The notes under the pieces: model-generated
What the model was told of the DNA's origin: nothing
The model's database searches: none
What the model saw: only the letters and a program-made list of their open reading frames with translations
Assembly: GCF_003334335.1 (NCBI RefSeq)
Contig: NZ_QOWQ01000034.1
DNA length: 50,400 bases
Strand: one strand, 5' to 3'
Source of the DNA: Escherichia coli
Lineage (GTDB): Bacteria; Pseudomonadota; Gammaproteobacteria; Enterobacterales; Enterobacteriaceae
Position numbers and translations under genes: made by a program
In this document: piece after piece, positions 32,940-33,917 of the stretch
How positions within the stretch are numbered: position 1 is the stretch's first letter
Layout: every line of letters begins with the position of its first letter

Positions 32940-33917
32940 TTATCCCAATAAACTCCTCACCGTCTGGCTGGAAATTCGCGCCTGACCATTCACCGCCTGC
33001 AATAACACCTGATAGTTATGATTCGCGCTATCCAACACGCCGCCGAGATTTTCCGACGCCTGCACGGCGTTTTCCGTTTGCGGGAAGCGGGACATGCCGT
33101 CGATCAACTGGCGGGCTTTTTCCTGCTGCACCGCCATTTGCGCGCGCTGCTGATTAATGTTTTCTAACATCTGGGAAATCCCTGCCCCGCCCTGTTGCAG
33201 GCTTTGCGCTAAACGCTCGGCCTGCGACGGTTCGGCAAAGGTTTTTAGCGGCATAAACGCCGACTTATCACCATCGGTGCGCACGCTTAAGGTGCTTTCA
33301 ATGTTGGGCCACTGCTTTTCGGTGGTGGAGAAGCTGATGCCGTCCGCTTGCTGATGCAGTTGCACACCCACGCGGCGCAGGGCGTTGGTCAGCCGCGTCT
33401 GATACTGCGCGGCGCTGTCATCCTCAGACAGCATCACCGCCGAAAGCTGAGTCTGCCGCCCGTCAGAGACGCTGAACATGCGCGTTCCCGGCGTGGGGTT
33501 GTGTACGAGATTCGCCAGATCCGGCGAGTGAAAAGTCACCCGCGCCTCGCCCTGCAACACTGGCTGCAACTGGCGGTCTACCGCACCGCCGGAAAGCGCG
33601 GTGCGTTTGTCCAGCATCTGCATCAGCGCCGTACTCTGCGCCTGCCCGCCCTTACGCTGGCTGTGACGATAATCGAGCAACTGCTGCTCCAGTTGCCCGA
33701 GGTAGTGATCCGCCTGCTGCAACGTGGTGAGCTGGTCGTTAAGCTGCACGCTGTAACGCTGCGGGCGAGTGGTAATCAGCGGCGAGGCCGGATATTCACT
33801 CGCCGTCGCCGGGAGTTTTTGCCGCACCGCCTGAGTGGGCGCAACGGTTGACGACGATACCGCAGCGCTATGCGCGCTGCCGGTGGCGAGTGACGAAGAA
33901 GTAAGTCCGACCTGCAT
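32940..33917 (-). CDS. Flag-2 hypothetical protein, Gln/Ser/Ala-rich, downstream of lfgL
   Basis: 325-aa ORF in operon position after lfgK-lfgL; no motif I can assign. Confidence 0.6.
   Translation of the reverse strand: MQVGLTSSSLATGSAHSAAVSSSTVAPTQAVRQKLPATASEYPASPLITTRPQRYSVQLNDQLTTLQQADHYLGQLEQQLLDYRHSQRKGGQAQSTALMQMLDKRTALSGGAVDRQLQPVLQGEARVTFHSPDLANLVHNPTPGTRMFSVSDGRQTQLSAVMLSEDDSAAQYQTRLTNALRRVGVQLHQQADGISFSTTEKQWPNIESTLSVRTDGDKSAFMPLKTFAEPSQAERLAQSLQQGGAGISQMLENINQQRAQMAVQQEKARQLIDGMSRFPQTENAVQASENLGGVLDSANHNYQVLLQAVNGQARISSQTVRSLLG

Follow-up and report, generated by a model that had tools for sequence, protein, structure and literature searches.

Directly behind the genes for its two hook-filament junction proteins, Flag-2, the lateral-type flagellar locus of Escherichia coli, carries a further gene, lafW, whose product RefSeq lists as a hypothetical protein. 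What kind of protein is it, and what part might it play in the flagellum? We addressed this question in a stretch of 50,400 nucleotides (the window) from contig NZ_QOWQ01000034.1 of E. coli assembly GCF_003334335.1, which holds a Flag-2 locus with dinB on one flank. The gene under study is as follows.

32940..33917, minus strand: lafW coding sequence, ATG start, 325 aa; stop codon at 32940-32942 as given by the list of open reading frames (ORFs)

The coordinates, orientation, and length given in the initial annotation all hold, as does its description of the product as Gln/Ser/Ala-rich (Q 13.2 %, S 10.5 %, and A 10.5 %, along with L 10.8 % and zero Cys). The protein is 100 % identical to WP_001195955.1 of E. 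coli strain 300709, and the window is of E. coli chromosomal origin, with positions 31900-34900 showing 100 % identity to many complete E. coli genomes. The data presented below lead us to regard LafW as a very divergent protein that is predicted, from its modeled fold, to be flagellin-superfamily-like, and as probably an exported flagellar accessory protein.

The initial annotation called the protein uncharacterised, which is correct for its function, the current RefSeq/PGAP entry reading 'hypothetical protein', and incorrect for its identity, as the gene has already been named lafW in publications. Older records carry the name 'flagellar hook-associated protein'. The label 'putative hook-associated protein' goes back to 2005, when Ren et al. 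reportedly described LafW in the Flag-2 locus of E. coli 042. In the published comparisons, the gene after lfgL in Flag-2 is lafW, a 'putative hook-associated protein' without an orthologue in the primary flagellar locus and with a mean amino-acid identity of 44.6 % across Enterobacterales, and it serves together with lafK and lafZ as a diagnostic Flag-2 marker (PMC6993521, PMC7526173, PMC3032704). Only three genes, lafW, lafK, and lafZ, set Flag-2/lateral-type loci apart from the primary system. The gene in the window is the same one, in the same place between lfgL and lafZ, as in E. coli 042 (De Maayer et al. 2020, PMC6993521). Elsewhere, 'lafWZ' has been mis-described as a toxin-antitoxin pair (PMC4637896), and we found no experiments on lafW in the searchable literature. 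As an entity, lafW is already known, and the roles that had been suggested for it in the initial annotation agree with the label it already bears. Relative to the searchable literature, three points seem to be new, namely, that the family extends well beyond Enterobacterales and always sits behind flgKL, that no public hidden Markov model (HMM) covers it, and that the structure predicted for its members resembles flagellin, the ND0 segment being degenerate and a flagellin-type C-terminus being kept.

The confident AlphaFold model of LafW (m2351902eda30; predicted local distance difference test score, pLDDT, 85.6) shows the domain order of a flagellin, and a Foldseek search of the PDB with this model returns flagellins in all of the top ten positions, with E values down to 3e-7. 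From the N-terminus onward, the following elements can be distinguished, with secondary structure taken from the AlphaFold2 (AF2) model.

33765..33917, minus strand: N-terminal tail (codons 1-51), with a conserved MQVGL start and then low-complexity S/T/A/Q/P sequence, predicted disordered
to 33747, minus strand: motif YPASPL..RPQRYSV (residues 42-57), Enterobacterales-specific, which closes the N-terminal tail
33588..33764, minus strand: ND1-like half of a helical bundle (codons 52-110), a helix at 52-88 and a shorter one at 93-109, pLDDT above 90
33276..33542, minus strand: alpha/beta insert at the D2 position (codons 126-214), AF2 secondary structure, pLDDT 96-98
32943..33224, minus strand: CD1/CD0-like C-terminal helices (codons 232-325), at 232-241, 247-276, 281-313, and 317-324 (AF2), ending in ...GQARISSQTVRSLLG

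The predicted structure contains the D1 bundle of N- and C-terminal helices with a variable domain inserted. Codons 52-110 carry the family motif QLN.Q...QQA..YL..L...L, as seen in the consensus of our family alignment A2. The alpha/beta domain, over which the Foldseek alignments to flagellins extend, holds most of the residues that are near-invariant across the family (A2 columns F129, E144, L146, L180, G184, F196, E200, W203, and G214, with G216 two residues beyond), yet its average conservation is not above that of the helices. The best conserved segment across the family is the helix at 314-325.

The N-terminus presents a different picture, in that a helical and conserved D0 segment is absent. 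Residues 1-51 are predicted to be disordered (pLDDT below 50-63 in both models), and prolines occur at positions 27, 36, 43, 46, and 52, giving five in the first 55 residues, which is also the family median. The same 55 residues are rich in A/S/P/T/G, and residues 1-41 are the least conserved region of the protein, unlike the situation in the lateral flagellin LafA, where ND0 is the best conserved segment. The motif at 42-57 has the highest conservation within Enterobacterales (4.0 bits) and is not kept in the wider LafW family. No signal-peptide-like or transmembrane-like hydrophobic segment was seen in the N-terminal region. The earlier statement that the protein lacks flagellin-type termini is therefore borne out for the N-terminal ~50 residues, which are low in complexity, proline-containing, predicted disordered, and poorly conserved; it does not hold for the C-terminus, which carries a flagellin-type signature.

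That signature, the clearest feature at the sequence level, is apparent when the ends of the proteins are placed side by side. LafW ends in ...GQAR-ISSQT-VRSLLG and members of the Pseudomonas type in ...AQAN-ISRFA-VVSLLS, while the lateral flagellins encoded in the same loci end in ...KQSN-SMSSM-VSSLLQ or ...SQAN-GMSGM-VMSLVG. A pattern that captures this signature (QA[NR]-x5-V-x-SLL-x, of the QAN-x5-V-x-SLL type) is found in the window protein, in 25 of 34 LafW sequences and in 20 of 21 LafA sequences from the loci, and in none of the FlgL (0/33), FlgK (0/33), or FliD (0/20) sequences. Among 1939 unclassified ORFs (about 2100 ORFs in all) there are two matches, both of them LafA copies, and shuffled LafW tails yield 0.01 matches. 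The signature is suggestive of a link between LafW and the lateral flagellins and falls short of proof, since the pattern was written post hoc, after both families had been inspected, and is kept in only 29 of the 121 members of the broad family.

Searches with sequence models gave a different outcome. No Pfam or NCBIfam model matches LafW, confirming the absence of a recognizable family match, and neither Flagellin_N (PF00669), Flagellin_C (PF00700), nor the NCBIfam flagellin/FlgL models match the LafW family significantly. Alignment by hhalign of the LafW family (narrow, broad, and distant subset) with LfgL, LafA, LfgK, FliD, FliS, and FliK was negative, with P of 0.05-0.6, and of 0.12-0.46 for the FlgL or flagellin alignments. 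The templates were built from the same loci and are shallow (effective number of sequences, Neff, about 2), which limits the sensitivity of these comparisons; the positive control, LfgL against LafA, was recovered with a probability of 98.8 % and an E value of 9e-17. Several weak signals were noted, and those with a placed alignment are in register with the fold assignment. With the narrow LafW profile (A1), residues 166-294 align to the flagellin 4nx9 at E 0.046, an alignment that is lost with the broad profile. One distant member, P0200, was alone in giving sub-threshold matches to flagellin N-terminal models (E 0.002-0.012), in which its residues 44-136 pair with flagellin residues 51-142. 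Four LafW members show weak matches to the Pfam 'Flagellin hook IN motif', and among segment HMMs LfgL ranks first for the CD1-like helix, at noise level. 

Support for membership of LafW in the flagellin superfamily comes from the predicted fold, and not from the sequence models or the ND0 segment. LafW resembles flagellin (FliC or lateral LafA) in the predicted order of an N-terminal segment, D1-like helices, an inserted domain, and CD1/CD0-like helices, as well as in being Cys-free and Q/S/A-rich, and its QAN-x5-V-x-SLL-x type of ending is suggestive of lateral flagellins. It differs from flagellin in going unmatched by Pfam, NCBIfam, and hhalign, in having a proline-containing disordered tail where the ND0 helix would be, and in being encoded with flgKL and not with fliDST. 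From FlgL it differs in being unmatched by TIGR02550, in the negative hhalign result, and in an ending of the flagellin type, which FlgL lacks. LafW should best be described as flagellin-like and not filed as a flagellin or FlgL. Non-filament flagellin homologues are not without precedent, as Campylobacter FlaC is secreted and not polymerised (PMC5466977), and LafW would share with FlaC the idea of a flagellin-derived protein that is exported via the flagellar apparatus without becoming a lattice subunit. No sequence relationship between the two was seen, no search aimed at one having been made, and they are reversed in what they retain, with FlaC keeping both D0 termini and having no central domain, and LafW keeping the central domain and having lost ND0.

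The family reaches well past the Flag-2 loci of Enterobacterales. We identified 120 homologues in a protein database clustered at 90 %, and a profile search of 1.84 billion representatives (50 % clustering) recovered 231 members at E <= 1e-3, nearly all of 330-380 aa. Named members belong to Enterobacterales (among them Escherichia, Citrobacter, Atlantibacter, Siccibacter, Leminorella, Pseudescherichia, Ewingella, Yersinia pestis/pseudotuberculosis, Rosenbergiella, and Tatumella), Pseudomonadales (Metapseudomonas otitidis and Pseudomonas alcaligenes), Burkholderiales (Rubrivivax gelatinosus, Pelomonas, Trinickia, and a locus whose FlgI clusters with Roseateles), and Rhodocyclales (Parazoarcus). 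The Yersinia homologues are named lafW in the database, and their cluster falls inside the LafW profile family. The window protein is homologous over its full length to deposited LafW, and its gene lies behind lfgL and before lafZ/lafA. In view of the lack of a public HMM for the family, alignment A2 could be the starting point for building one. Two genes described in the literature may be further relatives. In the lateral cluster of Plesiomonas shigelloides, flgL_L and lafA are separated by a gene for a protein of 349 aa 'without the classical Maf domains', which received the name maf-5 because of minimal similarity, and in V. parahaemolyticus an extra ORF, VPA0275, follows the presumed lfgL, VPA0274 (numbered from LfgK = VPA0273).

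In the sample of loci examined for synteny, which comprises the window and 32 fetched loci, flgL is located immediately upstream of lafW, on the same strand and with a gap of 3-89 nt, in 33 of 33 cases. Downstream of lafW, the cluster may end, or lafZ, a TetR gene, or unrelated genes may follow. Since the gene 3' of lafW varies while flgL is fixed, the invariant unit is flgK-flgL-lafW. The family is conserved across two proteobacterial classes, and its place behind flgKL is fixed in at least three orders beyond Enterobacterales. The initial annotation had placed the gene in the slot after the hook-associated genes, co-oriented with lfgK-lfgL, and had named a lack of conservation in other Flag-2 loci as grounds for dismissing it. 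The placement is correct, and conservation is seen both in other Flag-2 loci (PMC6993521, and our homologue search) and in Pseudomonadales, Burkholderiales, and Rhodocyclales, whose lateral-type clusters carry the gene right behind flgL. The corresponding elements in the window are listed below.

34878..36254, minus strand: lfgK (FlgK/HAP1), TIGR02492 FlgK, E 2e-103
33934..34887, minus strand: lfgL (FlgL/HAP3), the cistron upstream of lafW, TIGR02550 FlgL, E 1e-57; the RefSeq start sits about 24 nt further in
33918-33933, minus strand: lfgL-lafW spacer, 16 nt
33922..33926, minus strand: ribosome-binding site AGGAA, 4 nt 5' of the lafW ATG, within the spacer

At the lfgL/lafW junction we saw no sigma-70-like promoter and no convincing terminator. 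lfgK is presumed to be the first and lafW the third cistron of an lfgK-lfgL-lafW transcript.

Against six close orthologues, the ratio of nonsynonymous to synonymous substitution (dN/dS) is 0.06-0.12 at dS 0.19-0.38, as compared to 0.024-0.048 for lfgL, 0.026-0.055 for lfgK, and 0.008-0.036 for lafA. These values correspond to purifying selection that is 1.3-3.8x more relaxed than that on the junction genes. Of 5426 complete E. coli genomes, 1276 carry lafW, and 1272 of these carriers retain at least 80 % of the gene. The low dN/dS, the numerous homologues, and the presence in these E. coli genomes establish that lafW is a genuine gene and more than a chance ORF. The allele in the window is a minority one, shared at >= 99 % identity by 44 genomes, compared with 1230 genomes at 90-95 %. 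A named record of the 042 style, P0016 (E. coli, 'lateral flagellar putative hook associated protein'), matches residues 1-244 at 94 % identity and has a total length of 252 aa. Because it stops after residue 244, this allele is without all of the C-terminal helices, and the window, at 325 aa, carries the full-length form. Further truncated E. coli clusters (about 180-263 aa) are present in the protein database. In Phytobacter massiliensis JC163 (locus L018, 8001-8991), lafW is split over two overlapping frames (8001-8324 and 8218-8991), a frameshift that represents either a pseudogene or a sequencing error.

As for what LafW does, the roles put forward in the initial annotation, an additional junction or filament-associated component or an exported substrate, are the most plausible. 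Our own tentative reading, to which we give a little less than an even chance, is that LafW derives from flagellin, is exported by the lateral apparatus as one of its late substrates, and acts at or near the hook-filament junction. Under such a scheme, lafW would be made together with both hook-filament junction proteins, and the product would be among the late substrates that the lateral flagellar type III apparatus exports. The disordered N-terminus could provide the export signal, and the flagellin-like C-terminus could serve as a handle for a chaperone or for assembly. Outside the cell, LafW might assist the lateral filament at or beside the hook-filament junction, either as an accessory hook-associated protein or as an adaptor. 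The predicted layout would supply the parts, with a tail of ~50 residues in place of the ND0 helix, a D1-like bundle (52-110 and 247-313), the alpha/beta insert (126-214), and the flagellin-type C-terminus. Since no ND0 helix can form at the N-terminus, LafW is expected to be an accessory protein or adaptor and is unlikely to be an ordinary lattice subunit.

A more specific version of this proposal, which we consider doubtful, is that LafW constitutes a third, unrecognised extracellular component of the hook-filament junction zone that is specific to the lateral-type flagella of Gamma- and Betaproteobacteria, an ND0-less flagellin-derived adaptor that would use its CD0-like end to dock onto FlgL or onto the first layer of flagellin. 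To our knowledge, the solved hook-filament junction structures of Salmonella and Campylobacter contain no counterpart of LafW. If LafW is structural, lateral flagella have a junction component that is absent from the model systems; if it is not, lafW is an ordinary accessory gene. The label 'putative hook-associated protein' is turned by these results into questions that can be tested, concerning lateral export, location at the junction, and binding of flagellin chaperones.

The most probable alternative, which we nonetheless hold to be unlikely, is that LafW is a regulatory flagellin mimic, exported or chaperone-bound, whose C-terminus binds LafC (FliS) or LfgN and which times LafA export or serves as an FlgM-like secreted checkpoint without being built into the flagellum. 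Flag-2, however, already codes for FlgM, FlgN, FliS, and a FliT-like protein, the well-conserved alpha/beta insert would be needless for a mere decoy, and lafW is linked strictly to flgKL and not to the flagellin/fliS operon. Appreciably less probable is a cytoplasmic assembly factor or chaperone, a FliS-like helical bundle that would serve LfgK, LfgL, or LafA and never be exported. Least probable of all, and very unlikely in our view, is that LafW is either a functionless or decaying passenger of a cryptic Flag-2 in E. coli, as might be read from the report that Flag-2 is unexpressed in E. coli EC958 (PMC4637896), from the 042-type allele of 252 aa, and from the Phytobacter frameshift, or an unrelated enzyme, be it a Maf-like flagellin modifier, as the name of the Plesiomonas slot gene would have it, or a replacement for the muramidase domain that the short LfgJ lacks, given that the FlgJ genes of the window, strain 300709, and five distant loci encode 99-175 aa and a rod-binding domain at most: purifying selection, the near-complete length of the gene in its E. 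coli carriers, and its conservation and fixed position over two proteobacterial classes argue against a passenger, and the enzyme is without fold or domain evidence, as no Maf, glycosyltransferase, or lysozyme-like domain or fold matches were obtained, the Maf domain (MAF_flag10, PF01973) in particular having no Pfam match in LafW or in any of the 121 family members.

Several features adjoin the lfgK-lfgL-lafW unit on its two sides.

32897..32930, minus strand: palindrome ggccggataagacgcgtttagcgtcgcatccggc, directly 3' of the lafW stop, in the gap that separates lafW from the convergent lafZ
31988-32881, plus strand: lafZ, convergent with lafW, encoding a 297-aa CadC/ToxR-like winged-helix regulator
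36558-36857, minus strand: lfgJ, 99 aa, no muramidase domain; its equivalent in strain 300709 is a RefSeq rod-binding protein

The palindrome at 32897-32930, which is assigned to the REP (repetitive extragenic palindromic) type by the E. coli REP consensus, is likely a 3' end or mRNA-stabilising hairpin. The convergent stops of lafW and lafZ lie 58 nt apart, and the gap between them is the 'VR2' (variable region 2) cargo-insertion hotspot of Flag-2 loci, empty in the window and reported to carry a toxin-antitoxin pair in strain 042. lafZ is the second Flag-2-specific gene of unknown role; its RefSeq start lies 17 codons later (843 nt), and LafZ residues ~170-190 appear hydrophobic by eye in the translation, which suggests a membrane segment. 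At the other end, the lfgJ-lfgK intergenic region (36255-36557) consists mostly of repeated palindromes resembling REP or bacterial interspersed mosaic elements (BIME), and strain 300709 is about 118 bp longer there. A weak sigma-28-like motif, TAAG-N15-GCCGCTTT, matched by eye only, is located at 36287-36313 on the minus strand, 32 nt 5' of the lfgK ATG. The gene at the flgJ position is likewise short (101-175 aa) in the five distant loci that bear lafW (L029-L033), with the Pfam Rod-binding domain in 3/5 and no Pfam match in 2/5.

Farther out, tRNA-Thr(CGT) (12887-12962, minus strand) is the point at which synteny with strain 300709 breaks off. Strain 300709 has genes for an integrase, an HsdM-like methyltransferase, and a zinc-ribbon protein beside the tRNA, and its sequence matching positions 55-12900 of the window lies about 33 kb further from it. 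The window does not contain this insert and on its 1-12900 side runs straight into the ecpCD/paoABCD core genes. Finally, Flag-2 variable region 1, at about 44400-49000 as mapped from strain 300709, lies between lfiJ and lfgN and holds a glycosyltransferase gene of 2.4 kb, a small gene of the cytidylyltransferase family, and a hypothetical gene of 310 aa, which are candidate flagellin-modification cargo.
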